A stretch of DNA of 64,000 nucleotides from Minisyncoccota bacterium (GTDB lineage: Bacteria; Patescibacteriota; Minisyncoccia; Phycocordibacterales; GCA-2401445), in the NCBI GenBank assembly GCA_040879725.1, contig JBBDJV010000015.1:32127-96126 (forward strand), in the 5' to 3' direction. Position 1 is the first letter of the stretch; the number at the start of each line of letters is the position of its first letter. The translations under genes were made by a program, and so were the position numbers. The notes beneath the pieces were generated by a model that did no database searches, was not told the DNA's origin, and worked only from the letters and a program-made list of their open reading frames with translations. Shown piece by piece: positions 17,661 to 62,923 of the stretch.

Positions 17661-17803
17661 CTATAGTAGAGGAGGTATTGACGATTACAGTCAGTGGTAT
17701 ACACTAGATATATTATGAATAGAGTAGGAAACATATTCTTTTTCTTTGCCTTTAGCCAGCACTCTGGTTGAGGTTTTGCTTGTTTCTGGAAATATTCTTG
17801 AAA

Positions 17804-17836
17804 AAAGCCAGCTCTCAACCAGAGCTGGCTTTTTAG
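17804..17836 (+). terminator. rho-independent terminator after the giant gene
   Basis: A perfect 9-bp stem 'gccagctct'/'agagctggc' with loop 'caacc', followed by TTTTT. Confidence 0.7.
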
Positions 17837-18249: not shown

Positions 18250-19755
18250 ATGCATTTTTTACGTACCAACATTTTAGTTAAAATAACACTCTATACCTTT
18301 TTGATTGTGGGAGTAGGTGTATTTTCTTTCCATAAAGGAAGTTTGGCGCAGGTAAATAATCGTACTGCGCCTGTCATAACTGACATTTCTATCGCTGAAG
18401 TAAAAGAATCAGAGGTCCGTATTTTATGGGAAACCGATAAAGAGTCTGACTCAATGGTAAACTTCGGACTCGATAAGCGATATGGAATTATTCGTCTTCC
18501 TGGAACAAGTCGAACCGACCATGAGTTAACTATTGGAGAGTTGAAACCTTCAACCACATACCATTTTCGAGTTGTTTCTTCTGATGCATCCGGAAACCAA
18601 AGCATTTCTGGTGACTTTCAGTTTACTACGAAGGGAATAGTAGAAGTAGAAGATATTGAGCGGGTTGAATCTCGCGAACAGCGCGCGGTTGTTGAACAAG
18701 CGGTAGCGCAAATTGATGAAATTACCGATGTTGAAGCTCTTGATATTGTCATTCAAAAAATACAACAAGTTGCGTCAGGTATTACCGATGATTTAACTAT
18801 TATCGGAACACCAGATGTTGAACCTCGTACAACAACAGCAGTTGTGCGATGGGTAACAAACAGACCCTCTGATTCCACTGCATCATTTGTTTCCGAAGAT
18901 GACTACAATCCACAAAGTAGCAATCCATACACCTCTTCTCAGAGTAGCAATGATGAAAATGTTACGGACCACCAAGTTACTATTATTGGTCTTGAACCAT
19001 TTACTGTTTATCGTTTGCAAGTGTCATCACGTGATCAGTTTGGTATCGTGGGAAAAAGTAAGGAGATAACCTTTACTACAAAATCAGTATTGCCGAATAT
19101 TACCAATATTGATTTAGAGAAAATAGAAGAAACCTCAGCTACTATTGTGTGGAATACAACTGTCCCTGCTAAATCTCTTATTGATTATGAAAACTTAGAT
19201 ACTGGTGAAATTAAGTCACTCGGTAGTCCAAGTTTGGCGACAAGTCACTCGCTCCGTCTTTCAGACCTTACGCTTGGAACACAGTACCGCGCGATAATTA
19301 CCGCAGAAAATGCGGGAGGAGAAAGAGTAAGTAGTGATCCTATTACCTTCGTTACTATTATAGATGAAGAACCTCCAGTGATTTCAAAAGTAACAAACGA
19401 ATCAACGCTTTTCCCCGGTTCGGAGGCTAGAATTCAGACCATTATTAGCTGGGAAACCGATGAGCCTTCACTGTGTAATTTCTTCTATCACCAAGGGTTG
19501 GTTCCGGGAGTAGTTCCTGAACAAACATTGCCAAGAAAGGACGATAACTATAAACAGGAACATGTACAGGTTGTTGTAGACTTCGCCCCTTCAACCGTAT
19601 ACAAGTTTTGGGTAATGTGTGAGGATGCATCCGAAAATGAATCTCGTTCGGAAGACTTTGTATTGTTTACTCCCGAGAAGGAAAAAAATATTATTGATAT
19701 AATTCTTGAGAACTTCGAAGGAACGTTCGGTTGGGTTCAGGATATCGGAGCTTAA
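18250..19755 (+). CDS. membrane-anchored protein with four FN3-like repeats (likely extracytoplasmic partner of the downstream ABC transporter)
   Basis: An N-terminal TM (ITLYTFLIVGVGVFSF) is followed by four ~95-aa repeats, each ending in '...Y.FRV.S.D..GN.S.S..F.FTT'-like strands. The stop TAA overlaps the next gene's start in TAATATG. Confidence 0.7.
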   Translation: MHFLRTNILVKITLYTFLIVGVGVFSFHKGSLAQVNNRTAPVITDISIAEVKESEVRILWETDKESDSMVNFGLDKRYGIIRLPGTSRTDHELTIGELKPSTTYHFRVVSSDASGNQSISGDFQFTTKGIVEVEDIERVESREQRAVVEQAVAQIDEITDVEALDIVIQKIQQVASGITDDLTIIGTPDVEPRTTTAVVRWVTNRPSDSTASFVSEDDYNPQSSNPYTSSQSSNDENVTDHQVTIIGLEPFTVYRLQVSSRDQFGIVGKSKEITFTTKSVLPNITNIDLEKIEETSATIVWNTTVPAKSLIDYENLDTGEIKSLGSPSLATSHSLRLSDLTLGTQYRAIITAENAGGERVSSDPITFVTIIDEEPPVISKVTNESTLFPGSEARIQTIISWETDEPSLCNFFYHQGLVPGVVPEQTLPRKDDNYKQEHVQVVVDFAPSTVYKFWVMCEDASENESRSEDFVLFTPEKEKNIIDIILENFEGTFGWVQDIGA

Positions 19756-19756
19756 T

Positions 19757-21082
19757 ATGGCAAAAGCACAAATTTTCGCAAAAAACCTGGAGGTTACATA
19801 TAACGAAGGAAAGTCCAATGAATTCAAAGCATCTCGTGATTTGAACGTGGAAATTTTTGCTGGAGAATACATTATTCTTTTCGGTCCGTCTGGATGCGGA
19901 AAGTCAACACTACTCTACTCAATCCTTGGAGCACTTCCACCTTCTCGGGGCCAAATGCTCGTAAAGGGAGACGATATATATAAGTATGAACAGGATCAGT
20001 TGGTTAATTTCCAAAGAAATGTTATCGGGATTATGTATCAGGCTTTTAACCTTATTCCGTCTATCAGCGTGCTCGATAATGTAGTACTTCCGCAAATATT
20101 TGCATCAGTAGATAAAGCACGGAGAGATAACCGGGGGAGAGATTTGCTTAGGCGCTTTGGTGTGGATCATATTGCAAACAAACTTCCAACAAACCTATCA
20201 GGAGGACAGATGCAACGTGTGGCTGTAGCTCGTTCACTGGTAAATGACCCAGAGATTCTCTTAGCTGATGAGCCGGTAGGTAACTTGGACAGTATTTCCG
20301 CGGAGCAGGTTATGAACACTCTTGAGCAGATTAATTTGAATGATAAAAAAACTGTTATTTTGGTTACTCACGATGCGAAATATTTACCCTATGCGCACCG
20401 CGTGTACTATTTGCGTGATGGTAAAAATGAACGAGAGGTGCCAAATCCAGAAAAAAAGCAAATTAAAAAAGTAGAGGCTGGTAAAACTATAACCACTGAA
20501 ATTGAAAAGCTGGCTCGTATGTATCCGTATTCTTCTATTGAAGAACTTCGAGTAAAAAGCCTGGTTAATTATCTTATCGAAGATATTGACTTTGATCAGC
20601 TTGTTATTCTTGAAAAAGCGGTAGAAGATGTGATCAAGGGGAGAATGGGTGATAATCGATTTCTCGATATTTTAAATAAGCGCATAGGAGAGGGTGGGGT
20701 TGGTTTTAGTAAAGCTCGTTCAGAGATGATAACAAAAAAGATTTTCACTATAATGGAAGAGTCTCGAGATATAACCCGCTTTAGGTCAACTATTGATATG
20801 GATTTAGGTTATTACTACCAGTCAAGATTTGTTGAACGACTCAAAAAGTATACCCTCAGTGAAGTTAAAATAAAGTTAAGCAAAGAACAACATGAGCGAT
20901 TAGATGACTTTATCTCAGATAGACTTACAGGACTAACTCGTCGGCATGAATTTCTACTTGCGCTTGATAAGCCTGTGAAAGAGGGTGGTTTAGGTCTGAA
21001 CAAAAAGGCTTCTGCTCTTATTTCACGACATATTGAAAAACTACTTGCACAGGGAGTAAGCTATATAATCGCAAAACACTAA
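19757..21082 (+). CDS. ABC transporter ATP-binding protein (MacB/LolD/FtsE class) with an atypical ~200-aa C-terminal extension
   Basis: Walker A GPSGCGKST, the signature LSGGQMQRVAVAR, Walker B ILLADEP and H-loop VTHD are all present. The extension is two tandem ~90-aa repeats, each containing an 'EGG(V/L)G(F/L).K' core. I moved the start from the ORF-track ATG at 19706 to the ATG at 19757, which sits in TAATATG overlapping the upstream stop. Confidence 0.85.
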   Translation: MAKAQIFAKNLEVTYNEGKSNEFKASRDLNVEIFAGEYIILFGPSGCGKSTLLYSILGALPPSRGQMLVKGDDIYKYEQDQLVNFQRNVIGIMYQAFNLIPSISVLDNVVLPQIFASVDKARRDNRGRDLLRRFGVDHIANKLPTNLSGGQMQRVAVARSLVNDPEILLADEPVGNLDSISAEQVMNTLEQINLNDKKTVILVTHDAKYLPYAHRVYYLRDGKNEREVPNPEKKQIKKVEAGKTITTEIEKLARMYPYSSIEELRVKSLVNYLIEDIDFDQLVILEKAVEDVIKGRMGDNRFLDILNKRIGEGGVGFSKARSEMITKKIFTIMEESRDITRFRSTIDMDLGYYYQSRFVERLKKYTLSEVKIKLSKEQHERLDDFISDRLTGLTRRHEFLLALDKPVKEGGLGLNKKASALISRHIEKLLAQGVSYIIAKH

Positions 21083-21083
21083 T

Positions 21084-22292
21084 ATGCAACTCATTGACCT
21101 CGCAAAACTTTCAACTCGTATGTTTAAAACCAACCCGGCTCGTACATGGCTGACTATTTTAGGTATGGGTGTGGGTACTGGAGCGGTGGTGGTGCTGGTG
21201 GGATTGGGTTTTGGTTTGCAGGGAGTATTGCTCGAGCAGATTGTGTTCGGAGAAACACTGCTTTCGCTTAACGTTTCAAGCCCTACCTCTGATACGGTTA
21301 AGTTAAACGATGAAGCGATTGAAGAATTTTTTGCAATAGAAAATGTTCTCGATGTTTCTCCGAGAGCGAGTTTTCCCGCGTCGGTTACGTACGGTGATCT
21401 AACGGGGAATATTTTCTTAGAGGGGTTAAACCCCGCGTATGTTCGGTATACTGGTACACAAGCAGAAGCAGGAGAAGTGTTTACGGAAGAAACAAGAGCA
21501 GAAGATCAGAAAAGTGTTCTTCTCACACAGTCAGTACTAAAGCTTTTTGGTGTCGAAACACCAGAGGAAATTATCGGAGAGTCCGTAACGTTTAGAATTT
21601 TTCTTGAAACTGGCGTGGGTGAGGTTGCCAGAGAGGTTATACTTCGCGATAAATATATTGTAAAAGGAGTAACTAACGATGCAACGTCGCTTTCGGCGCA
21701 AATGCTTATGGAAGAGCTCGAACAGCATGTTGGAATTGAGCTTTATGATCGTGCCCAAGTGCGCGTTTCAAAAACTGACTTTCTCACCCCTACTACGGAC
21801 GCACTTATTGAAATGGGTTTTAATGTAACTGCGCTATCCAAGACAGTGGAACAGGCAACAAAGATTTTCCAAGGAGTGCAAGCCGTTCTCGCATCATTTG
21901 GCGGTATAGCGCTCATTGTGTCTGCAATCGGAATGTTTAACACCATGACCGTTACGCTCCTTGAGAGAACGGGAGAAATTGGAATTATGCGTACCATCGG
22001 TGCGTCGTCTCTTGATATTAAGATTTTATTCGTTTCGGAAGCGGTTATTGTAGGTTTTTTGGGAGGGCTTATGGGTATAGCCATAGGTATGGGTATTGGG
22101 ATTACGTTAAATACAGGTATAAATATTCTAGCAAGCCAGTTCGGTGGTGTTGCAGTGAAGCTTTTTCGGTTTCCGTTTTGGTTCCTCGCATTTATTTCTA
22201 CATTCTCAGGAATTGTTGGTTTTATGACGGGTATTTTCCCAGCACGGCGGGCGGCAGGACTTAATCCACTCGATGCTATTCGTTACAAGTAA
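21084..22292 (+). CDS. ABC transporter permease, FtsX/MacB type (4 TM, large extracytoplasmic domain between TM1 and TM2)
   Basis: TM1 ARTWLTILGMGVGTGAVVVLVGLGFG is followed by a ~220-aa loop and a C-terminal FtsX core 'IALIVSAIGMFNTMTVTLLERTGEIGIMRTIGAS'. It starts 1 nt after the ATPase stop. Confidence 0.85.
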   Translation: MQLIDLAKLSTRMFKTNPARTWLTILGMGVGTGAVVVLVGLGFGLQGVLLEQIVFGETLLSLNVSSPTSDTVKLNDEAIEEFFAIENVLDVSPRASFPASVTYGDLTGNIFLEGLNPAYVRYTGTQAEAGEVFTEETRAEDQKSVLLTQSVLKLFGVETPEEIIGESVTFRIFLETGVGEVAREVILRDKYIVKGVTNDATSLSAQMLMEELEQHVGIELYDRAQVRVSKTDFLTPTTDALIEMGFNVTALSKTVEQATKIFQGVQAVLASFGGIALIVSAIGMFNTMTVTLLERTGEIGIMRTIGASSLDIKILFVSEAVIVGFLGGLMGIAIGMGIGITLNTGINILASQFGGVAVKLFRFPFWFLAFISTFSGIVGFMTGIFPARRAAGLNPLDAIRYK

Positions 22293-22396: not shown

Positions 22397-24229
22397 ATGC
22401 ATATAATTAAAAGATTTAACAAAGCACAAGCTACTGCAGGAAAGGTAACTATCGTTACTGTTCTCGCGGGGATAATGGTTTTTGCCGCCTTTTATGTGCT
22501 TAACCTCGACGAACACACCGTTCCCAAGGTTGAAGCTCAAAGTAATGCAACTACTTCCGTGGAAGTCCTTAACACTCCACCTGATTGGACTGTTGATGCG
22601 GAAGAAGGTGCGGAATCATCTATCACAAATCCTACTAACTCAGGGGATGCTGTTTCGTGGGTAGCAACAGGAACCGACGCTAACGGAGAAGATTATTACC
22701 TTCTTATCTGTAATGCGTCTTCTACACCGATTGCTAATTCAAACGCTGCTCCAGAATGTACTGGTGGAACTCAGTGGGCAGTTTCAACCTCTACCGCAAG
22801 TGGTCAGCCGGCAAGTGTCTCAACTACCACAGCAGAAGCATGGGATGAGAGCAATGACTGGTATGCGTATATTTGTGATGATAATACAAGTACACCACGG
22901 TGTAATGCTGCACATCGACAAGGAAGTGGCTCGACAGCATCTCCGTTTTTAGTAAACCACAGACCAACTTTTTCACTGTTTAGCGATAGTTCACCAACTC
23001 TTCCTGGTGCTGTAATTACATGGCACTCAACATCAACTGACTCTGACATCGAGGGTGGAGCTGACACTCTTATACTTCATGTATGTAAAGAAGCAGACTT
23101 TACCGGCACAGAATGTGGTGCGGGAGGTTTCTGGGCTTCAACAACACTTACCTATACAGCAGACACTGCCGCAAGTACAACGCTTCCAGTTCCATTGCAA
23201 GACGATGATTATGAAGCATACGGGTATGTTGTTGACAACCACGGTCACGCAGCAACAGGTGGGCAGCAAGGAGCCGACTCTGTTCTAACTGTCGCAAATG
23301 CTACCCCTACGGTTAGCTCGGGTACTATCAATATTAACGGATTAGCTGACCTTGAGCTTGCGATTGCGGGAGGAGAAACTGAAAACTTCACACTTTCATT
23401 TGCTGTAAGTGATGGAAATAGCTGTGTTGCGAATGCATCTACTACGTATGAAGTGGCAACTGTTTCTGCAGACTTCTATCGCTCAGGAGTTACAGCTGCG
23501 AGCTGTAATTCTGCAGGCGATTATGATCCGAATAACTGCTATACTGGAACAGTAGCTACAACAACATGGAATTTGGTTTGTACACAAGATAATACATCAT
23601 GTGGAGGTCCTGATGACTCAACAGTTACGTGGAGCTGTACGTTCCCTCTATGGTTCCTCGCTGATGCAACTGATGCAGGAAGTTTCTATGCGGCGGAAGA
23701 TTGGAGAGCTACAGTAACTGCTACAGATGATAATTCTTCCGCAAGTACTCCAACAGAAAGTGCTGGTGGACAAGATGTCCTCCAACTTATGTCTTTCGTT
23801 CTTAATACTTCTGATATTCCATACGGAGCCCTAGAGCCAGGTCAGACAACAGAGGATTTGATCGCAACAACAACGATTGCTGCAAATGGTAATGTTGGCC
23901 TTGACCAAAACCTCTATGGAGAACATATGTGTCCAGGGTATAGTGGTCAAGGAACATGTCCATTCCAAAGTCCAGCTACCTCTTCAATCCATGCTGATAA
24001 CCAAAAATTCGGAACAACAACCACTGGATATGTAGATAATGATGCGTATGCTCTGGCTACAACAACTCAAGAGCTTGAGCTAAACCTTGCTAAAACAATA
24101 AGTACATCAACACTCTCTGAGGCAGATATTTACTGGGGTATTGGTATCCCTGGTACTATTACTTTCGCTGGTGAATATTTCGGAGAAAATACATTCCAAA
24201 TGGTTACTTCGGAATCTGCTGAGTGGTAA
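22397..24229 (+). CDS. secreted/N-terminally anchored protein whose C-terminal half is homologous to the giant protein's C-terminal domain
   Basis: N-terminal hydrophobic segment VTIVTVLAGIMVFAAFYVL. The N-terminal half contains two internal Cys-containing repeats. The C-terminal half aligns to 16870..17657. Confidence 0.75.
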   Translation: MHIIKRFNKAQATAGKVTIVTVLAGIMVFAAFYVLNLDEHTVPKVEAQSNATTSVEVLNTPPDWTVDAEEGAESSITNPTNSGDAVSWVATGTDANGEDYYLLICNASSTPIANSNAAPECTGGTQWAVSTSTASGQPASVSTTTAEAWDESNDWYAYICDDNTSTPRCNAAHRQGSGSTASPFLVNHRPTFSLFSDSSPTLPGAVITWHSTSTDSDIEGGADTLILHVCKEADFTGTECGAGGFWASTTLTYTADTAASTTLPVPLQDDDYEAYGYVVDNHGHAATGGQQGADSVLTVANATPTVSSGTININGLADLELAIAGGETENFTLSFAVSDGNSCVANASTTYEVATVSADFYRSGVTAASCNSAGDYDPNNCYTGTVATTTWNLVCTQDNTSCGGPDDSTVTWSCTFPLWFLADATDAGSFYAAEDWRATVTATDDNSSASTPTESAGGQDVLQLMSFVLNTSDIPYGALEPGQTTEDLIATTTIAANGNVGLDQNLYGEHMCPGYSGQGTCPFQSPATSSIHADNQKFGTTTTGYVDNDAYALATTTQELELNLAKTISTSTLSEADIYWGIGIPGTITFAGEYFGENTFQMVTSESAEW

Positions 24230-24269
24230 AATAGACTTTGCTCTCCACAGAATATCTCCTTATTTTTCT

Positions 24270-24297
24270 TGCGAAATCTAGCATAAGCGGTATGATA
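24270..24297 (+). promoter_or_regulatory. candidate sigma70-type promoter
   Basis: TTGCGA, a 16-nt spacer, then TATGAT. Confidence 0.35.
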
Positions 24298-24340
24298 GGT
24301 ATACACAGGCATAGTCTGGCTTGTTTGTACTTGGCCTATA

Positions 24341-25276
24341 ATGAAAATTTCTAAAAAACTGGCATATACTCTTGTTCTTGTAATTTTTCTGTGTGCACCG
24401 TTTTTCCTGCATGCGAGTTTTGGTATTACGCCACCATACGTAAAGAATACAAGCTTAACTCGTAACTCTGAGTTTACACAGAAAATTACGTTAGTGCGCG
24501 GTGATCCAGTTTCTGACCTGAAGGCGGAGCTCACTATGGATGTTCCTGGAGCAAATGACTGGATCACCATAGATAAAGGTATGACCTTTTTGTTACCTAA
24601 AGGGGAGCAGAAGGTACCTATGTATGTTACTGTAAAAATTCCCGATGGAGCTCGTTTTCAAAAATATAAAGGTAACATCCGTATACGAACATCTCCGGCA
24701 GACGGGGAGAGAAGTGGTGGTGGAGCCGTGTCCATTGCTCTCGGTGCACAAATCGATGTTGACTTTGATGTTATAGATAGAAAAATTTTTGACTTTAGAG
24801 TAAGAAAGATAGCAATTGAAGATGTTGCTGAGGGGCACTCACTCGCATGGTTATATTTTCCCGGGAAAATTAATTTCAAAATCTCACTTGAAAATACCGG
24901 TAACATAGATGTCGCACCTTCGAAAGTAGTCTTTGATATTTTTGATTTTAACGGGGAGACATTACTCGAAACTACAGAAAGTAAAAATAAAATAGAAAAG
25001 GTTAAGCCGTTTGAAACCAAAGAGGTTGTAGCAGAACTTCCTACTTCACTTCCAGCAGGAAGCTATTTGGTACGGTATGTAATTTATAACAATGATGAAG
25101 TGAAGCAAGAAGGGGAGCTCAATCTCTCAATAGTACCTTACGGCACACTCGCGCAAGCTGGATATGGTTTCAGTGGTCTGTCTATCCCGCATAAACTTAC
25201 GATTATTGTCCCTATAGCTGTTCTTCTTTTGTTTGTATTTTTGGTATTTAAAAAGTCTAGGAAAAGAAAAAGATAA
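24341..25276 (+). CDS. surface protein with a signal peptide, two beta-sandwich-like domains, and a C-terminal TM plus polybasic tail
   Basis: N-terminal signal-like LAYTLVLVIFLCAPFFLHA. The C-terminal anchor reads LTIIVPIAVLLLFVFLVF followed by KKSRKRKR. Confidence 0.6.
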   Translation: MKISKKLAYTLVLVIFLCAPFFLHASFGITPPYVKNTSLTRNSEFTQKITLVRGDPVSDLKAELTMDVPGANDWITIDKGMTFLLPKGEQKVPMYVTVKIPDGARFQKYKGNIRIRTSPADGERSGGGAVSIALGAQIDVDFDVIDRKIFDFRVRKIAIEDVAEGHSLAWLYFPGKINFKISLENTGNIDVAPSKVVFDIFDFNGETLLETTESKNKIEKVKPFETKEVVAELPTSLPAGSYLVRYVIYNNDEVKQEGELNLSIVPYGTLAQAGYGFSGLSIPHKLTIIVPIAVLLLFVFLVFKKSRKRKR

Positions 25277-25282
25277 TTAACG

Positions 25283-26416
25283 ATGAATAGAATATTCTTT
25301 TCTATTACTTTGTTTTGTATCTCATTTGGGCTACTATACCCGTTTTCTTTGAGTGCGATAACGATAGGAGTTGCCTCCACAACAATCAGAGTTTCTATTT
25401 GTGGCGACGGAATAGTTAATCAAGGGGAAGACTGTGATCCTCCCGGATCAGGAAATTACAGTACGAGTATTGCTGGCAGGGAGTGTAACTCGCTGTGTGA
25501 GTGGGCGCCGTACTGTGGAGATAGTGTCGTGCAAACAAGTTTCGGAGAAGAATGTGATGACGGAAATAATACCTCAAAAGATTTTTGTTCCGCTGAGTGT
25601 CTTGCTGAGGAAATTGTATTAAATACTGGTGGTGGAGGAGGAGGGGGAGGTGCGGGTATTTTCCCAGGAGGAAGTTTTGCTCCACCTTCAAACTCAGACG
25701 TTACTATAACTGGTAAAGCGTATCCAAACTCCACTGTTACTATCCTTAAAGACGGAGAGGTTATTGGTGAGGTAGCTACAGATAGTAATGCAGATTTTTT
25801 ATTCACAACAAGTGGTATCACTCCGGGAACCGCAACATTCGGTTTTTGGGCAGAAGATAGCAAGGGGCTACGTTCTATTTCCTATACTACGACCTTTGAG
25901 GTTATCCAAAGTGCAGTAACAACTGTTTCCGGAGTATATCTTCCACCAACAATACGAGTTGAACCTCGTTCCCTTGATCGAGGAGACACACTTACTATTG
26001 ATGGAACTTCAGTTCCAGATGCTGTTATTACTGCCCAAATAAGTGGAGATGATGAGTACTTGGAAACAGTAACTGCGGAAACAGACGGTTCTTGGGAGCT
26101 TTTGTTTGATACATCACCGATACCAAACGATTCTTATACTGCTCGTGCGTCTTTCAGACGAAGTGACACAAACGGATTAACAATTGAAAGTGGTTTTGGG
26201 CAAGCACTTTCATTTTTTGTGGGAGTCGATGCGGTACCCGATACCGGACCCTCAGACCTAAACCTTGATGGGAGAATAAATATTGTGGACTTTTCCATTA
26301 TGCTTTTTCATTGGGGAACAGACGGAGCCGGTTCAAGCCCATCGGCTGACATAAATGGAGATGGAAGAGTAAACTTAACAGACTTTTCCATTATGATTTT
26401 CAACTGGACGGGATAG
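25283..26416 (+). CDS. secreted protein with a cysteine-rich repeat, an Ig-like region and a C-terminal dockerin
   Basis: Signal peptide. 'CGDGIVNQGEDCDPPG' and 'CGDSVVQTSFGEECDDGNNTSKDFCSAEC' are Myxococcus-type Cys-rich repeats. Then a poly-Gly linker. The C-terminus has two dockerin Ca-loops, 'DLNLDGRINIVDFSIMLFHW' and 'DINGDGRVNLTDFSIMIFNW'. Confidence 0.65.
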   Translation: MNRIFFSITLFCISFGLLYPFSLSAITIGVASTTIRVSICGDGIVNQGEDCDPPGSGNYSTSIAGRECNSLCEWAPYCGDSVVQTSFGEECDDGNNTSKDFCSAECLAEEIVLNTGGGGGGGGAGIFPGGSFAPPSNSDVTITGKAYPNSTVTILKDGEVIGEVATDSNADFLFTTSGITPGTATFGFWAEDSKGLRSISYTTTFEVIQSAVTTVSGVYLPPTIRVEPRSLDRGDTLTIDGTSVPDAVITAQISGDDEYLETVTAETDGSWELLFDTSPIPNDSYTARASFRRSDTNGLTIESGFGQALSFFVGVDAVPDTGPSDLNLDGRINIVDFSIMLFHWGTDGAGSSPSADINGDGRVNLTDFSIMIFNWTG

Positions 26417-26471
26417 GTGTGCATAATCTTTTATAACGAAGCGTGTACCACATGCTATACTCAATAGTACA

Positions 26472-27536
26472 ATGGTGATGAATTGGAAAACTTTTTTGGT
26501 GCGAGTGATAAGTACTTCTGTATTACTTTTTTTTATTTTGCCTGGGTTGGTTGATGCATCTCTTTTATACCTTGATCCTACCGGAGCTGAGTATAGAAAA
26601 GGAAGTACGTTTGTAGTGACCGTTCGGCTTGATCCTGAAGGAGAGTGTGTAAATGCTGTTAATGCTGTTATTACCTACCCAACAGAGGAGCTTACTGCTT
26701 TTGATGTATCACGAAGTGGTTCTATTCTTTCGCTCTGGGTTGAAGAGCCATATATAGATGAAGTAAATGGAAAGATTTATTTCCAGGGAGGTATTCCAAA
26801 TGGATACTGTGGGAGAATAGACGGCGATCCAGGCAATACGAATATTATTGGTAGAATTGCTTTCAGGAAACCCGGTGGTCTGAGTGTTGGGGGAGCGAGT
26901 GAGGGAGGAGTGCTTGAGGTAGCTTTTGATGAAGAAGAAAGTGAAGCGCTTGCAAATGATGGCCGAGGTACACCAACAGACCTTACATTTCAGAATGGAA
27001 CATACATAATTTCTCCTGACGCTCCTCTAACTGATGATAGCGTGTGGTTTAACGCACTTCGAGATGACAGAATTCCTCCAGAGAGCTTCACTGTCACCCT
27101 GCACACAAAAGATGATATACAGAAAGGAAAGTACTTTGTTGTTTTCTCTACAACCGATAAACAGAGTGGCTTGGATGAATATCAAATAATGGAGGAATCG
27201 ATAGATAATCCGGGTTTTGTTGAATGGAAAAAAAATACCAGAGTACTTTGGGAGCAGGCAAAAAGCCCGTATGTTTTGAAAGACCAAAATTTGAATAGCG
27301 TTATACGAGTGAAAGCAATAGACAAAGCAGGAAATGAACGTATTGCAGCATATGTCCCAGGGGAAGATGAACGACCGGCAACACAGACGTCAGGTAGTAG
27401 CATGATGACTTACGCGGGTGGAGTGTTGTTGGTACTCGTACTAATATTGATTGGTTTTATTATTAGAAAAAGGGTAAATAGGAGAAAAACATCAGTCGGT
27501 GTAGATACTCCGGGTTCAATTAATCAAGAAAAGTAA
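26472..27536 (+). CDS. membrane-anchored surface protein with an N-terminal cohesin-like domain (paralog of 27539..29272)
   Basis: Signal peptide. 'GSTFVVTVRLD...VNAVNAVITYPTEELTAFDVSRSGSI...GKIYFQGG' resembles a cohesin beta-sandwich. The C-terminal TM is GVLLVLVLILIGFII followed by RKRVNRRK. Confidence 0.5.
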   Translation: MVMNWKTFLVRVISTSVLLFFILPGLVDASLLYLDPTGAEYRKGSTFVVTVRLDPEGECVNAVNAVITYPTEELTAFDVSRSGSILSLWVEEPYIDEVNGKIYFQGGIPNGYCGRIDGDPGNTNIIGRIAFRKPGGLSVGGASEGGVLEVAFDEEESEALANDGRGTPTDLTFQNGTYIISPDAPLTDDSVWFNALRDDRIPPESFTVTLHTKDDIQKGKYFVVFSTTDKQSGLDEYQIMEESIDNPGFVEWKKNTRVLWEQAKSPYVLKDQNLNSVIRVKAIDKAGNERIAAYVPGEDERPATQTSGSSMMTYAGGVLLVLVLILIGFIIRKRVNRRKTSVGVDTPGSINQEK

Positions 27537-27538
27537 GT

Positions 27539-29272
27539 ATGAAAAAAGGTTTATTTGTGTTTATCGGTATCTGTGCTGTTTTCGTAAGTGTGCTTACCTT
27601 TCTTCCCTCGGTTGCTTACGCAGCGGGGTCACTCGTGCTTTCTCCTCCAACCGGTGTGTATACTGCTGGGAGCACGTTTACCGTTCGGGTACTTGTAAAT
27701 ACAGATGGACAAGCAATAAATGCAGCGGAAGGTGAGATTACTTTCAATCCAAGCGAGCTGTCTGTTGTGGCTGTGTCACAAGCCGGATCTATTTTTAATC
27801 TTTGGACGGTGGAGCCGACATATTCAAATGGAGCAGGAACAATTTCATTTGGTGGTGGAAGTCCGAAGGGGTACACCGGTAGCTCAGGAACGGTTATTAC
27901 TATTACGTTCCGCGCCCTGAAAGAAACCAGTGCCACAGTACGATTTTCTTCCGGGTTGATACTTGCTGCGGACGGAAAGGGTACTAATATTATTGGAGCT
28001 CTTTCTTCTGGTTCTTACACACTACAGTCAAGCAAGCAAACACCTCCTCCTGAAATTGTAGTACCTGATAATTCTCCAAGTGCTCCAGCGGTTGTTTCTT
28101 CGACACATCCGAATGAAACAAAGTGGTATCCACTTACAGACGCAAAACTTTCTTGGGAGGTACCCGACAGTGTGAGTGCGGTGCGATTACTTATCGACCA
28201 AACAGAGTATACAATTCCTACCGTATTTTACGGTGAGCCGATAAGTGAAAAGTTGATTGAAGACCTTGATAACGGCGAGTGGTATTTCCATGCACAGTTT
28301 AGGAACGCAGACGGATGGGGCAAGGTGCGACACTTTAGAATAGGAGTTGATACTGAGTTGCCGTCTTCTTTTGAAATACGCGAACCTGAAGACCGAGATC
28401 CAACCAGTCCAAACACACAACTTATTTTTGACGCTACCGATGAAGTTTCGGGTATTGCGCGATACGAAATCCAGATTGGGAATGATGAGCCGATTGTATG
28501 GATAGATACTGAAGGAGATGGTTTATATACACTTCCAACACTTCCAGCAGGAAAACATACTCTTATTGTAAAGGCATTTGATGGTGCTGATAACTATCTT
28601 GTGCAAACCAAGACTGTTACGATTGTCGCACTCGGAGCTCCTACGTTTACCGAGTATCCTGACACTATCTCAACCGATACTATTTTAGTTATGCGTGGTA
28701 CCGCTATTCCAAACAGTACTGTTACCGTGTGGACCAGACGAGGAGGAGAAGAGCCGGTTCCTTACACACTGACATCTGATGCTGATGGAGGATTTACCTT
28801 TATCTCTGATAATGAGCTCGCAAAAGGAGTTCATACATTTTGGGCAACAGTAACCGACGAGCGGGGAGCTCAGAGCGAGCCAAGTGCTGAGGTTAAGGTA
28901 GTGGTCAGAGACCCGGGGTATGTCAGAATCGGATCATTTGCTCTCAGTATTCTTTCACTTATAGTTCCATTGGTTGGTGTTATTGCGCTTCTGGTTTTCC
29001 TCTTCTGGTATACTCGCCATAAAATTATTTTGTTACGAAAGCGATTAAATAAAGAAGTGTTTGAAGCGGAAGCCGCATTACATAAAGCGTTTATCACTTT
29101 GCAGAAGGGAGCAGAGAAACAAGTGAAGGCTCTTGAGGCAGTTTCTGAGAAGCGTAAGCTTACTGCAGAGGAAAAAGATATTCTCGCAAACCTTAAAAAG
29201 AATCTGACTCAAGCGGAAAAGGCGGTCGCCAAAGAGATTGAAGATATTGAAAAGGTACTGAAGAGTAATTAA
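27539..29272 (+). CDS. membrane-anchored surface protein: cohesin-like N-terminal domain, Ig-like domains, TM helix and cytoplasmic coiled-coil tail
   Basis: 'GSTFTVRVLVNTDGQAINAAEGEITFNPSELSVVAVSQAGSIFNLW...ISFGGG' is paralogous to the N-terminus of 26472..27536. The TM is IVPLVGVIALLVFLFWY and the protein ends '...IEDIEKVLKSN', like the fragment at 1..612. Confidence 0.6.
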   Translation: MKKGLFVFIGICAVFVSVLTFLPSVAYAAGSLVLSPPTGVYTAGSTFTVRVLVNTDGQAINAAEGEITFNPSELSVVAVSQAGSIFNLWTVEPTYSNGAGTISFGGGSPKGYTGSSGTVITITFRALKETSATVRFSSGLILAADGKGTNIIGALSSGSYTLQSSKQTPPPEIVVPDNSPSAPAVVSSTHPNETKWYPLTDAKLSWEVPDSVSAVRLLIDQTEYTIPTVFYGEPISEKLIEDLDNGEWYFHAQFRNADGWGKVRHFRIGVDTELPSSFEIREPEDRDPTSPNTQLIFDATDEVSGIARYEIQIGNDEPIVWIDTEGDGLYTLPTLPAGKHTLIVKAFDGADNYLVQTKTVTIVALGAPTFTEYPDTISTDTILVMRGTAIPNSTVTVWTRRGGEEPVPYTLTSDADGGFTFISDNELAKGVHTFWATVTDERGAQSEPSAEVKVVVRDPGYVRIGSFALSILSLIVPLVGVIALLVFLFWYTRHKIILLRKRLNKEVFEAEAALHKAFITLQKGAEKQVKALEAVSEKRKLTAEEKDILANLKKNLTQAEKAVAKEIEDIEKVLKSN

Positions 29273-29358: not shown

Positions 29359-29928
29359 ATGGATGATGTATACGAAAAGAAAATATACGAATACTACCTG
29401 CGAGAGAAACGAATTCCCGTGTATCGTGTTATTGCAAAGCTTTGTGGTTTCGCTTCTACAAATGCCGTAAGTCGTTTAGTAACACGGTTGCTCGAGTCAC
29501 GCTTCCTTGAACGTAATTCTCGAGGAAAATTAATTCCCGGAGCGCGTATGGGAAGTGTTCGTTTGCTGGGTCTTGTTGAGGCGGGTTTTCCTTCTCATGC
29601 TGAAGAAGCTGACTTAGACACGATAACCATAGATGAATTTTTAATCGAGAATAGAGAAGCGAGTTATATGTTAAAGGTAAAGGGTGACTCTATGATCGAC
29701 GCTGGTATTTGTCCGGGTGACTTTGTTATTGTAGAGCGAAAGAATACCGCAAAAGTGGGAGATATTATCGTTGCCGAGGTGGACCAGGAATATACGATGA
29801 AATACTTGGCAGAGAAAAATGGAGTGAGATATCTCAAGCCTGCAAATAAAAAGTATCGACCTATTTTCCCTTGTGAAAGTCTAACAATAGTTGCAGTAGT
29901 TCGTTCAGTGATCAGAAAATATGCATGA
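29359..29928 (+). CDS. lexA: LexA-like repressor (wHTH plus S24 peptidase domain)
   Basis: N-terminal wHTH. The catalytic Ser is in 'KGDSMIDAGI' and the Lys in 'TMKYL', with the same spacing as LexA/UmuD. Confidence 0.8.
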   Translation: MDDVYEKKIYEYYLREKRIPVYRVIAKLCGFASTNAVSRLVTRLLESRFLERNSRGKLIPGARMGSVRLLGLVEAGFPSHAEEADLDTITIDEFLIENREASYMLKVKGDSMIDAGICPGDFVIVERKNTAKVGDIIVAEVDQEYTMKYLAEKNGVRYLKPANKKYRPIFPCESLTIVAVVRSVIRKYA

Positions 29929-31148
29929 CGCAACGATGCATCTTACATCTTGATGGAGACGGTTTTTTTGCCGGTTGCGAAATGGCGGTTAACCCAAAAC
30001 TTAAAGGAAGAGCGGTTGTTGTTGGTGCCGAGAAGGGGATTGTAACCGCGTTGAGCTATGAAGCCAAAGCACTCGGAATCGCGCGGGGTATGGCTACGTT
30101 TCAGATACGAAAAGACTTTCCTGAAGCGGTGGTACTGCCGGGCAATTACCGCTTGTATCGTGAGTTATCTAAAAGAATGAATGCGATTGTTTCGAGATAC
30201 GCGCACAGGGTTGAGCCATACAGTATCGATGAGTGTTTTGCTGATATTACGGGTATTCCCGAACGTTTTGGAAAAACTCCGGAAAGCTTTGGACGCATGG
30301 TGCAGAAAGTGCTTTTGTCGGAACTAAACGTTTCTTTTTCAATGGGTATTGGCAGTACGAAAGTTCGCGCAAAAACAGCATCAAAACTAGAAAAACCTTT
30401 TGGCTGTAGTGTGTTTGAACTGCGCAAAAATCAAAATAGCTTAATGGCACTACCTGTCGGATCTTTGTGGGGAATAGGCAAAAGTAGCGCGATGGCTTTG
30501 AATGCACTTGGCATTTGGACTGTCGGGGATTTTATGGCAAAGGAGAGGTTTTTTATCAATAATTTTTTTAATAAGCAGGTATGTGAATTATGGAGTGAAC
30601 TGAAGGGTGAGTCGTTGTACGATATTTCAGCTAAGCGTGAGTCTCCTCAGTCGGTAAGCCATACGCGTACATTCACACCAGCAAGTGGATCACTTAAAAC
30701 ACTATGTAGAGAGCTTACGTGCCATGCGGAAGCAGTGGCATTTCGTTTGCGGATGCAAGGTCTCGCTGCACAGGAGTATTCTTTTTTTGTGAAAACAAAA
30801 AGTTTCGAGTATAAAACATTCAAAGTGTCTTTTGTATCACCAACGCATGACGATCATGAAATTGTACCCGAAATACTTAGGTGTTTACGAAATGCCATAG
30901 TGCCCGGGGGAATGTACCGAGCAACCGGAGTTACAGCTCTTGGTGTTGTTCCGTCTATTGCTGTGTCGGGGAATATGTTTGCGCGAGAAGTAAATTCAAA
31001 GGCTCTGTACGGGGCATTTGACCGTATTTTGCGAAGGTATGGCAGTAGTGCAATCATGCTGGCATCCGGAATGCATCCCCAAAGAAAGGCAAAGAAGAAG
31101 TTCGAAGAGCTTCATTTTTCGATACCCTGTATCGGGTATGTGGATTAG
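29925..31148 (+). CDS. Y-family DNA polymerase (DinB/UmuC-like)
   Basis: 'ILHLDGDGFFAGCE' and 'SIDECFADITG' are the Y-family palm motifs. It overlaps lexA by 4 nt. Confidence 0.8.
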   Translation: MTQRCILHLDGDGFFAGCEMAVNPKLKGRAVVVGAEKGIVTALSYEAKALGIARGMATFQIRKDFPEAVVLPGNYRLYRELSKRMNAIVSRYAHRVEPYSIDECFADITGIPERFGKTPESFGRMVQKVLLSELNVSFSMGIGSTKVRAKTASKLEKPFGCSVFELRKNQNSLMALPVGSLWGIGKSSAMALNALGIWTVGDFMAKERFFINNFFNKQVCELWSELKGESLYDISAKRESPQSVSHTRTFTPASGSLKTLCRELTCHAEAVAFRLRMQGLAAQEYSFFVKTKSFEYKTFKVSFVSPTHDDHEIVPEILRCLRNAIVPGGMYRATGVTALGVVPSIAVSGNMFAREVNSKALYGAFDRILRRYGSSAIMLASGMHPQRKAKKKFEELHFSIPCIGYVD

Positions 31149-59191: not shown

Positions 59192-60232
59192 CTAGTTGTT
59201 TGCGTTTGCTTTAGAAGTACGTTCCTCTTTCATTTTTTCACGGACTTCTTTGAGTATTGCGTCGGCTATTTTCTTTTCGGACTTTAGTAATTGTCTGGTT
59301 GCGTCATAGCCACGTCCAAGTTTTGTCTCTCCGTATGAGTATGAAGAACCACTTTTTTGAACGATGCCGTATTTTTCACCGAGTGCGATAAGCTCTCCCT
59401 CGCGAGAAATTCCTTCGTTGTACATAAGGTCAAACTCAGTGTTTCGGAAAGGTGCCGCAACTTTGTTTTTAACCACTTTTGCTCGTACGCGACCTCCCAT
59501 GATTTCATCTCCTTTCTTTATTTGAGCGATACGTCGAATATCAATACGTACTGATGTGTAGAACTTGAGAGCCTTTCCTCCTGGTGTGGTTTCCGGATTA
59601 CCAAACATCACTCCAATCTGCATTCGAATTTGGTTGATGAAAATAACGATTGTTTTTGACTTCGCAACAATACCGGTGAGTTTTCTCAGGGCTTGAGACA
59701 TTAAGCGTGCTTGCTTTCCAACATGGTGAGCTCCCATTTCTCCCTCGATTTCATCTTTTGGTGTGAGTGCCGCAACGGAGTCTATGACAATAACATCTAC
59801 TTTTCCTGAACGAACCAAACTCTCGGTTATTTCAAGTGCCTGTTCTCCGGTATCTGGCTGTGAGATAAGTAGCTCATCTATTTTAACACCAAGCCGTCCT
59901 GCGTATTCCGGATCCATAGCATGTTCAGCATCTATAAAAGCACAAATACCGTTTTTCTTTTGCGCTTCGGCAATTACGTGGAGGGAGAGGGTTGTTTTTC
60001 CTGAAGATTCAGGTCCATAGATTTCAACAATTCGTCCTCGTGGAAGACCTCCGACACCGAGGGCGTCATCAAGTCCGATAGATCCTGTGGAGACTGAATC
60101 AATATTTACATGAGGTTTGTTCCCGAGTGTCATGATCGCCTCGTCACCAAACTTAGTTTTTATTTGAGCAATGGTGGCGTCAATGTTTGGACGTTCGGTT
60201 TTTTCTACTGGTTTGGTACTTTTTTTAGGCAT
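59192..60232 (-). CDS. recA: recombinase RecA
   Basis: '[20 protein letters not shown]' (Walker A) and 'FINQIR'. Confidence 0.95.
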
Positions 60233-60589: not shown

Positions 60590-62923
60590 TTAGCGGTTAT
60601 TTTCATCTTCTTCGTCAGCGTACTCTTCGTCTGATTCGTCAGATTCTGTACCAAGGGCTGAGTCTTCTTCTGCTTCATCATCTTCGTTCCTGTAAATCTC
60701 TCTTGGTTTAGAACCGTTTTTAGGACCGATAATTCCGTTTTCCTCAAGCTGGTCAATAATTTTTGCAGAACGTGAATAGCCGATTCCAAGTCTTCTTTGT
60801 AGGTAGGATATTGATGCTTGTCCCGATTCAAAAATAATCGCTTTTGCCTCGTCATACTTAGGATCTTCAGACTTCTCGTCATCGTCAGAAATTGCTCCAA
60901 AGGCAAGGTTCTTTTCTTTTACTTCAGAGAGGTCGATTTGTGTGTTGAGTTCTCCCAGATAAGCATCCTTAAGATATTTCACTACTTCCTTCACTTCTTC
61001 TTCTGAAATAAATGATGCTTGAATACGCTGAGGTTTAGACATCTCTCCGGATATATAGAGCATATCTCCTGAACCAAGGAGTTTTTCTGCTCCTGCACTG
61101 TCCAAAATTGTCCGAGAGTCAATCTGTGACGCAACCTGAAGGGCAATACGTGCTGGTACGTTTGCCTTGATAAGACCCGTGATGACGTTTACTGAAGGAC
61201 GTTGTGTAGAGAGAATAAGGTGAATACCAACCGCACGACTCATTTGTGCAAGGCGCACAATACCGGCTTCCAGCTCTCGTGGATACATCTGCATTATGTC
61301 AGCCAACTCATCAATAATAAAGACCACAAAAGGCATCATTTCCGGAGGTTGCGGTTCTTCGCTTTCTTCTTTTTCTGCGTCTGAAAGTCCTTCGTACTTT
61401 TCTTTTGCTTTTTTGTATTTCTCCAGTAAGGGGTTTCGTATATTTTCGTGATATGACTCGATATCTCTTACTTGTTCAGCTTCCAGTATGTCGTACCGGC
61501 GTGTCATTTCATTAACCGCCCATTTGAGTGCCTTTAAACAATCTCTTGGATCGGTAATAACCGGAGTCAGAAGGTGAGGTATTTTGTTGTACATAGTAAG
61601 TTCAACTCTTTTTGGGTCAACCATGAGCAACTTCATATTTTCAGGAGAGTTGCGATAGAGGAGAGAAATAAGAAGGTTGTGTATTGTTACCGATTTTCCG
61701 GCACCGGTTGCACCAGCTACAAGCAGGTGGGGCATTTTTGCAAGGTTTGCGAAATGAGGTGCACCGGAAATACCTTTTCCAAGTGATACGAGAAGTTGCT
61801 TTGGTGATTTTTGGTAATCAGGACTCGCAAGCAAGCTACCCAAGCCCACTTTTGTTTTCGTGCTGTTTGGTATCTCAATTCCCACGAGTGACTTCCCTGG
61901 GATTGGAGCTTCAATACGAATAGGGTGTGCAGCGAGCGCGAGAGAGAGGTCACTCTGGAGTCCGACAATACGGGAGAGCTTAACCCCTTCTGCGGGCTTA
62001 AGTGAGTAGCGGGTTACCGATGGTCCAATATTGATTTCGTCCATCTCGACATTGATGCCGAAGTTCTGAAGAGAGCGCTTGATAATATTTGCATTTGCTT
62101 TTATGTCGCCAACACCAGGCTTACCTTTATCATGCGCAAGAAGAGAGAGGGGGGGTGTGGAATACGGACGCCCTACGTATGACTCATGGGGAGAGAGAAC
62201 AAGGTCATCACTCTCAGCTTCCGGTTTTGCTTTCTTTTGTCGACGAGGGGTTACCTCTTCTTCATCTACTTCCTCACTTTCATCCTCTTCTTCATCATCC
62301 TCATCTTCTGCTTCACTTTCTTCCTCCGAGAGCTCTTCTACTTCTTTAGGGTCGAGACCGACAACTGAAATACCATCAACATCAACCTGATTTTTTTGAA
62401 ACCATTTTCTCCAGAAAAGGAGTTTTTCAAAATGCAGTTCTGAGTTAAGCGTGATAAGTATTGAAACAAAAAGAAGTGAAATCAAAATAAGCGTGCTTGG
62501 TATATTTCCAAAGAGTGACACAAGAGGTTTTTCAAGTAACTCACCAAACAAGCCGGATCCGTTTTCAGATGCGCGTGCTATCAGACCAAGACCCGATAAG
62601 AAAAATAAAACAATACCTACAATGCGAGACTTAGGAAGGTCCGTGTGGAGTGCTCTGAAGTACGCAAAAGAAAAGAAGAGAGCGGTAGCAGGAAGGAGAA
62701 AGTAACCAATCCCGAGGAGGTTGGTAAACCAATTAAAAAGTTTGTTTCCTACAACTCCTGCTATTTCAAGGGGTGCCAAAAAAAGTATTACTGCAATCAG
62801 TAAAAAGAATGTTCCCGACACCATGTGTCGAGTGCTCTCATTTAATTCGCTTATGAATGAAGGACGCTTATCAATTTTTTTCTTTCTGCCCATACAAGAG
62901 AATTGTATCACGCTGAAAAGCAA
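60590..62923 (-). CDS. ftsK: DNA translocase FtsK/SpoIIIE
   Basis: N-terminal TM segments, an acidic linker, the motor Walker A 'LLVAGATGAGKS', and the gamma winged-helix 'ISYLQRRLGIGYSRSAKIIDQLEENGIIGP'. Confidence 0.9.
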   Translation of the reverse strand: MLFSVIQFSCMGRKKKIDKRPSFISELNESTRHMVSGTFFLLIAVILFLAPLEIAGVVGNKLFNWFTNLLGIGYFLLPATALFFSFAYFRALHTDLPKSRIVGIVLFFLSGLGLIARASENGSGLFGELLEKPLVSLFGNIPSTLILISLLFVSILITLNSELHFEKLLFWRKWFQKNQVDVDGISVVGLDPKEVEELSEEESEAEDEDDEEEDESEEVDEEEVTPRRQKKAKPEAESDDLVLSPHESYVGRPYSTPPLSLLAHDKGKPGVGDIKANANIIKRSLQNFGINVEMDEINIGPSVTRYSLKPAEGVKLSRIVGLQSDLSLALAAHPIRIEAPIPGKSLVGIEIPNSTKTKVGLGSLLASPDYQKSPKQLLVSLGKGISGAPHFANLAKMPHLLVAGATGAGKSVTIHNLLISLLYRNSPENMKLLMVDPKRVELTMYNKIPHLLTPVITDPRDCLKALKWAVNEMTRRYDILEAEQVRDIESYHENIRNPLLEKYKKAKEKYEGLSDAEKEESEEPQPPEMMPFVVFIIDELADIMQMYPRELEAGIVRLAQMSRAVGIHLILSTQRPSVNVITGLIKANVPARIALQVASQIDSRTILDSAGAEKLLGSGDMLYISGEMSKPQRIQASFISEEEVKEVVKYLKDAYLGELNTQIDLSEVKEKNLAFGAISDDDEKSEDPKYDEAKAIIFESGQASISYLQRRLGIGYSRSAKIIDQLEENGIIGPKNGSKPREIYRNEDDEAEEDSALGTESDESDEEYADEEDENNR

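Follow-up and report, generated by a model that had tools for sequence, protein, structure and literature searches.

A type VII ABC ATPase with a C-terminal extension of two tandem, predicted helical repeats, encoded in a surface-protein gene cluster of Parcubacteria-group bacteria

The type VII ABC systems, among them MacB, LolCDE and FtsEX, use ATP hydrolysis in the cytoplasm to drive the motion of a periplasmic domain, which in turn acts on partners outside the cytoplasm. Accessory domains on ABC ATPases are a known kind of feature and several transporters sense the state of the cytoplasm by means of them. The known ABC regulatory domains (TOBE, NIL/ACT and CBS) are beta-rich or alpha/beta, and the systems whose ATPases bear such C-terminal domains are mostly importers, with the ECF and Mla systems built differently. 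To our knowledge none of these is a type VII mechanotransmission system, and we know of no accessory domain described on an ATPase of the MacB/FtsEX/LolCDE class. ATPases of the LolD, FtsE and MacB type end at about 214-234 residues, whereas the ATPase described here adds 215 helical residues. The locus also differs in its extracytoplasmic partner, which is apparently a protein with FN3-type domains, where the MacB, LolD and FtsE types have an MFP adaptor, an EnvC/PcsB-type factor or a lipoprotein. The extension has no sequence or fold kinship with the C2/NIL domain of MetN, the TOBE-type domains of MalK, GlcV and FbpC, the CBS domains of OpuCA, the helices of EcfA or the extension of MlaF. 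Unlike all of these it is an all-helical internal tandem repeat, and its likeness to the known ABC regulatory domains is positional only. A TOBE domain or NIL/ACT fold of the MalK/MetN type was looked for after the nucleotide-binding domain (NBD) and was not found there. Within the libraries and papers searched, the domain, its construction from tandem repeats, its setting on a MacB-type ATPase and its place in a surface-protein cluster are undescribed, and the literature search found no relevant account of a Parcubacteria cluster that combines an ABC system with giant proteins.

The ATPase gene lies on the forward strand of the window, which is the whole 64,000-nucleotide stretch of DNA that was analysed (Table 1). 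The enclosing open reading frame is 19706..21082 (+), and to judge from the sequence the ATG at 19757, with GGAG about 8 nt 5' of it, is the likely start. Residues 27-174 match Pfam ABC_tran (PF00005) with an E-value of 1.3e-30 and a score above the gathering cut-off, and the Walker A motif, the LSGGQ signature, the Walker B motif and the H-loop are all present. The adjacent permease, with its MacB_PCD and FtsX matches, places the ATPase in the type VII (MacB-like) group. The NCBIfam models for DarD, MacB, LolD, FtsE and DevA align from residue ~3 to residues ~223-244, and these profiles are only 214-221 positions long in full; this puts the end of the NBD near residue 225, with about 215 residues beyond it. 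The scores are far under every equivalog cut-off (181.7 vs 375 for DarD, 177.5 vs 966 for MacB, 171.7 vs 307.75 for LolD and 170 vs 264.85 for FtsE), so the ATPase is not an orthologue of any of the named systems. Among solved ABC ATPases, none aligns past residue 268 of the 441. The initial annotation, a model's reading of the letters, had stated that the protein runs on for about 200 residues past a canonical NBD and that MacB/LolD/FtsE ATPases normally end soon after the H-loop. Both statements agree with the profile lengths, as the LolD, FtsE, DevA and DarD models stop at ~214-221 residues and the extension has ~215 residues (nt 20432..21079). The range it had named, 20450..21080, falls in the extension and the sequence strings it had quoted are found in the translation.

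Table 1. Positions in the window of the ATPase gene, its parts and the neighbouring genes.
Feature	Position	Strand	Basis
Giant surface protein, 5654 aa	696..17660	+	ORF; Ig-like and DUF2341 domains
Membrane-anchored protein with three FN3-type domains, 501 aa	18250..19755	+	Pfam Pur_ac_phosph_N / fn3
ABC ATPase gene with C-terminal extension, 441 aa	19757..21082	+	ORF; ATG (likely start) with GGAG upstream
NBD, aa 1-225, MacB/LolD/FtsE-like	19757..20431	+	
Most conserved part of extension, aa 226-276	20432..20584	+	Column entropy, invariant residues
Repeat 1, aa 256-338, a1-a2-a3-GGVG loop-a4	20522..20770	+	Smith-Waterman, hhalign, AF2 helices
GGVG loop 1, aa 313-316	20693..20704	+	AF2 model, translation
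Basic inter-repeat segment RDITRFRS (family consensus D..RFRR)	20765..20788	+	R343 conservation, charge
Repeat 2, aa 352-435, a1'-a2'-a3'-GGLG loop-a4'	20810..21061	+	Smith-Waterman, hhalign, AF2 helices
GGLG loop 2, aa 410-413	20984..20995	+	G411 invariant; translation
Partner permease, 402 aa, MacB_PCD + FtsX, type VII ABC	21084..22292	+	Pfam
Surface protein, 610 aa	22397..24229	+	Related to giant protein (BLAST)
Surface protein, 311 aa	24341..25276	+	
Dockerin-like surface protein, 377 aa	25283..26416	+	Pfam
Surface protein, 354 aa	26472..27536	+	No Pfam match; BLAST groups with 577-aa neighbour
Cohesin-like surface protein, 577 aa	27539..29272	+	Pfam

The extension (residues 226-441) consists of two homologous modules of ~80-90 amino acids each. 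A Smith-Waterman alignment of residues 256-335 with residues 352-433 scores 73, compared with 27.5 +/- 4.9 (maximum 52) for 2000 shuffles, none of which reached 73; the Gumbel p for the pair is ~3e-6. Half-profiles built from 52 orthologues align in hhalign with 98.1% probability and an E-value of 7.6e-14 over 73 columns (aa 266-338 with aa 359-435). The two tandem repeats of about 90 residues that the initial annotation had proposed from the sequence are thus real. The consensus of one unit reads approximately (K)VKS.VNYL....(S).eQ..RLe..V..R..G.I..eeF...L..P...GGvG(L/F)....A..mt..hEKL. No repeat was found at the DNA level in the ATPase gene, so the duplication is ancient, and the extension arose by ancient internal duplication of a four-helix module of ~80-90 residues.

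Structure prediction, which the initial annotation had also suggested as a check, gives a confident all-helical extension. The AF2 model of the full-length protein, made from a 55-row alignment of database proteins, has a pLDDT of 90.2 and a pTM of 0.81, and most 10-residue blocks of the extension lie at 83-97; confidence falls to 65-74 in the linker and where the two repeats join. The pTM implies a defined arrangement of NBD and extension. The extension alone, with a 7-row alignment, gave a pLDDT of 76.7 and a pTM of 0.70. In the full-length model the extension is purely helical, with nine helices and no beta-wing predicted. Helix a0 spans residues 247-255. The helices of repeat 1 are a1 (261-273), a2 (279-293), a3 (299-307) and a long a4 (319-345), and those of repeat 2 are 351-370, 376-391, 396-404 and 416-432. 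In each module the GGxG loop is predicted to cap the N-terminus of the last, long helix.

The two parts of the extension differ in conservation. Residues 226-276, which comprise the linker R.VPNPEKKQI, helix a0, the YPY turn and helix a1 (KVKS.VNYLTQ), have a column entropy of 1.02 vs 1.04 for the NBD and ~2.1 for the remaining extension. N230, P231, E248, P257, Y258, V266, K267, S268 and N271 are invariant in this part. Conservation of this degree, like that of the NBD, is consistent with packing against the ATPase core. The conserved points amid the variable repeats are the GG loops, R343, R389 and the E427-K428 pair. In loop 1 G314 is invariant and G313 is kept in at least 90% of orthologues, and in repeat 2 R389, G411 and E427 are invariant. 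R343, in the basic segment between the repeats, and K428 are each present in at least 90% of 54 sequences and are invariant among the 52 orthologues. The mean net charge is +2.1 for the inter-repeat segment and +5.3 for the whole extension, with a span of -7 to +19 across orthologues for the latter. The dN/dS of the extension is 0.06-0.09, similar to that of the NBD, in the only two pairs that gave ratios, dS being saturated in most pairs. The extension is under purifying selection.

The extension does not match any domain in the libraries searched. No Pfam or NCBIfam model matched it at E <= 1 besides noise, which agrees with the initial annotation, where its function had been left unassigned. 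There was no match among PDB sequences, and the best Foldseek hit against the PDB has an E-value of 0.74. The ribosomal protein bL20 was considered and rejected; it came up twice, at E 0.75 and, by hmmsearch, at E 0.021, and hhalign probabilities were <= 4% for both repeats against the S. aureus and E. coli L20.

The ATPase is encoded in a conserved gene cluster for giant cell-surface proteins that is kept in about 70 related species. A genome scan by pattern and tblastn, with one genome per GTDB species, gave 80 loci. ORF clustering of these showed the order giant surface protein, FN3 protein (~500 aa), ATPase (441 aa) and permease (~400 aa), followed by a giant-related protein of ~600 aa, an anchored protein of ~340 aa, a dockerin-like protein of ~380 aa and then cohesin-like proteins. 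The FN3 protein lies upstream of the ATPase in 68 loci. In the window it has a hydrophobic segment at its N-terminus and three stretches each that match Pur_ac_phosph_N and fn3; its gene stops 1 nt ahead of the ATPase start, and a strong terminator-like hairpin (17802-17834) lies 5' of it. The permease gene starts 1 nt past the ATPase stop, and the protein matches MacB_PCD (7e-15) and FtsX (5e-15). A homologous permease is clustered in 68 loci and adjoins the ATPase in every locus that could be parsed cleanly. The giant protein groups by BLAST with the downstream 610-aa protein and with up- and downstream proteins in 71 loci. The downstream surface proteins (22397..29272) have signal or anchor segments at the N-terminus and anchors at the C-terminus, and the order of their genes is maintained in about 45 loci. 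A variant of the ATPase with three repeats (P0151) is flanked by a 2076-aa FN3/Kelch protein and a MacB_PCD + FtsX permease, with further large surface proteins nearby. Since this context is the same, the core of the system consists of the FN3 protein, the ATPase with its extension and the type VII permease, and this core module is embedded in a surface-protein island. Neither DNA repeats nor tRNA genes nor Rfam matches lie in or around the ATPase gene.

Most of the 80 loci come from MAGs labelled as Patescibacteria or the Parcubacteria group, and the labels include Lloyd-, Sung-, Azam-, Falkow- and Kaiserbacteria, Spechtbacterales and Paceibacterota. One MAG is labelled Ectothiorhodospiraceae and many third-party bins are labelled Saccharibacteria or Gammaproteobacteria; we suspect that these labels are wrong because the gene order matches that of the other loci. 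In nearly all loci the ATPase has ~441 residues with the extension at about 226-435, and the exceptions in length are truncations at contig ends or breaks in ORF calling. When 1.84 billion cluster representatives were searched exhaustively with an HMM, 310 protein clusters (at 50% identity) came up at E <= 1e-3, of which 172 are at E <= 1e-10. In the 16 sequences that were read from the best 150 of the 310 clusters, the extension is C-terminal to an ABC NBD or the sequence is a terminal fragment. When a single-repeat profile was the query, C-terminal fragments were all that came back, and no further architecture turned up. The number of copies varies among distant members, with three repeats in P0151 and about four in P0155, and two to four copies are as expected of a modular binding unit. 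Other members have long disordered tails (P0055, P0069 and P0095) or N-terminal extensions (P0076, P0110 and P0127).

What would such a domain do on a type VII ATPase? The most reasonable reading, which the initial annotation had already suggested in outline, which draws on context and on analogy with other transporters and which we put forward tentatively as quite possible, is that residues 226-441 form a lineage-specific cytoplasmic regulatory or docking domain, possibly a dimerising one, that controls closure of the NBDs. Several features point to it, namely the NBD-like constraint on the proximal 50 residues, a distal surface that is variable apart from a pair of Gly-rich helix caps and a small number of arginines, a copy number that differs by lineage, and the fact that the extension was never seen without an ABC NBD. 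We infer a position under the NBD dimer, dimerisation, the binding of a ligand or partner and a regulatory role. The extension would hang from the membrane-distal face of the NBD, much as the C-terminal regulatory domains do in MetN, MalK and GlcV and the C-terminal helices in EcfA, and would determine the moment at which the ATPase may close and fire. It would thereby couple a cytoplasmic cue to the permease, and the permease would pass force to an extracytoplasmic partner. A partner protein could serve as the cue, or else a phosphate-bearing ligand that the two Gly-rich loops and the basic patch would hold. The partner on the other side of the membrane would probably be the FN3 protein, whose gene is putatively co-transcribed, along with the giant-adhesin, cohesin and dockerin-like proteins of the cluster. 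The variable surface of the repeats, with its entropy of ~2.1, could equally belong to a mainly structural spacer.

The other readings share parts of this evidence. In docking of the TAFH/NHR1 type, each repeat would form a helical groove for a short hydrophobic motif from a partner in the cytoplasm, which might be a cytoskeletal protein, a positioning protein or the tail of one of the cluster's own proteins, and the domain would then localise or recruit the ABC machine and would not gate it. TAFH is a eukaryotic transcription-factor domain, and the TAFH/NHR1 domains of TAF4 and ETO/MTG share with the module a helix-Gly-turn-helix hairpin, V..L..G.I..EEF...L. The variable copy number would suit a docking array, and weak TAFH matches recur. 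PF07531 (TAFH) is the commonest weak Pfam match, found in 10 of the 52 orthologues with a best E-value of 0.0014; the homologue P0157 scores 28.1 bits (gathering cut-off 27; E 2e-6); and the pooled repeat profile finds the TAF4 TAFH structure 2p6v at E 0.011. However, the P0157 match covers only one hairpin (profile positions 6-54 of 90, about half of the profile), and the GGxG loop and long helix of the module have no TAFH counterpart. In hhalign against TAF4 and ETO, repeat 2 reaches only 27% (E 6.7e-4, 34 columns) and repeat 1 only 5% (32 columns). The ATPase itself has no TAFH match at E <= 1, no structural match of the extension to TAFH was found, and no candidate gene for a cytoplasmic partner was found in the cluster. 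A de novo designed protein matches the same L..G.I..EEF...L hairpin with a slightly lower E-value (0.005), which marks the motif as generic. We do not count the ATPase as a member of the TAFH/NHR1 family, for which its homologues are at most possible members; the similarity is real but local to the hairpin, and we treat it as what appears to be a generic helix-turn-helix capping motif; docking of this type is rather unlikely. We consider it improbable that the module is a phosphate-binding unit loosely like HhH, in which the GGxG loops, the K/R-T-A residues and the RFRR patch would bind the phosphate groups of anionic lipid head groups, of a cyclic dinucleotide across the pseudo-dyad or of nucleic acid. 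Conservation in both repeats is highest in the Gly-rich loops, which lie at the N-terminus of a4, distant members read GG[VA]G[LF]..[KR]TA..[IL], which resembles the HhH pattern G-h-G..KTA, and the extension is basic on average. Module and HhH share a Gly-hydrophobic-Gly loop between two helices, followed by K/R-T-A and a hydrophobic residue, but from sequence the loop of the module is two residues longer than the canonical HhH hairpin. HhH families are absent from the matches of the ATPase and from the 25 most frequent families matched by the 52 orthologues, there was no convincing structural match, and the net charge varies so widely across orthologues that a general electrostatic role is not conserved.

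The initial annotation had noted a faint likeness to sigma region 4 or a winged helix-turn-helix, and a DNA-binding or regulatory module of that kind is very improbable. The helix-loop-helix spacing can be seen by eye, and Foldseek lists sigma-28/FlgM and RsiG-WhiG at E-values of about 5. However, the probability is <= 0.05 for both of these entries (E 5.2 and probability 0.03 for sigma-28), the prediction is purely helical and lacks the beta-wing, the ATPase has no sigma or HTH match in Pfam or NCBIfam, and of the 62 Pfam families matched by the 52 orthologues, the 25 that occur most often include none of this kind. That the repeats are a chance similarity, or the extension a degenerating tail with no function, can practically be dismissed; the lack of annotation is all that would speak for it, and it is at odds with the repeat statistics, the low dN/dS, the confident fold, the constant length and the invariant residues over 80 species. 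If the regulatory reading of the extension is extended to the whole cluster, the tandem GGxG modules would be cytoplasmic domains of a new class, for sensing or coupling. They would bind a symmetric phosphate-bearing signal, for example a cyclic dinucleotide, or a positioning protein, and so switch a type VII motor that assembles, moves or releases a giant surface apparatus of adhesin, cohesin and dockerin-like proteins. This larger picture is speculative and we regard it as doubtful. Such an apparatus may be used by Parcubacteria-group bacteria for attachment to other cells.

Were the sensor reading true, the domain would be where control is exerted over a lineage-defining machine for host interaction, in bacteria that are not yet cultured; were the extension merely a structural spacer, it would be mainly of taxonomic interest. 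A domain of ~215 residues, which is putatively soluble and could probably be expressed in E. coli, offers a testable handle on the regulation of a surface machine specific to the CPR. The extension is also a candidate for a new family in the domain databases and a candidate marker for locating the cluster in metagenomes. Word-indexed protein searches returned fragments only (6, 29 and 19 matches), and the family was brought to light by the exhaustive HMM search together with the genome scan.

The ABC module of the 441-aa ATPase with its helical C-terminal extension and its permease is tandemly duplicated in L068 and L074, two Falkowbacteria-type loci among those related to the window. Each of them encodes an additional, divergent ATPase that also bears this extension (about 25% identity over the extension); it has its own permease and lies directly upstream of the canonical ATPase–permease pair. 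In many orthologues the C-terminus is a short tail rich in Gly and His (..GHGH, ..AHH or ..AHS), and the window protein ends at residue 441 in ..AKH. The final His of the tail is conserved in more than half of the family sequences.

The giant ORF and the 610-aa ORF have the C-terminal motif IYWG[LI]..P.G....FG..TF in common and form one group by BLAST. In about 70 loci the ABC genes lie between this same pair. Two of the surface proteins have a C-terminal transmembrane anchor followed by a basic tail (KKSRKRKR, RKRVNRRK). Taken together, these surface proteins point to a surface assembly of the cohesin-dockerin style in this Parcubacteria-type genome. Directly 3' of the surface-protein cluster are the LexA-like and DinB/IMS-family genes, which overlap by 4 nt.

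Features of the window and of two related loci
Feature	Coordinates	Strand	Remarks
Giant ORF, 5654 aa	696..17660	+	C-terminal motif shared with 610-aa ORF
610-aa ORF	22397..24229	+	3' of permease gene; C-terminal motif shared with giant ORF
Surface proteins	24341..29272	+	weak Wzt_C, dockerin type I, cohesin, Big_13/Big_6 domains
LexA-like Peptidase_S24 and DinB/IMS-family translesion polymerase genes	29359..31148	+	
IleRS-type class I tRNA synthetase, 1168 aa	43078..46584	+	tRNA-synt_1 (1e-129), Anticodon_1
RecA	59192..60232	minus	
FtsK	60590..62923	minus	
Second ATPase, 505 aa	L068 2334..3851		same extension
Second ATPase, 519 aa	L074 2459..4018		same extension

The IleRS-type synthetase encoded in the window contains a histidine-phosphatase domain (His_Phos_1, E 1e-33) at residues 511-672, which splits the catalytic domain mid-way and is an unusual fusion or insertion.
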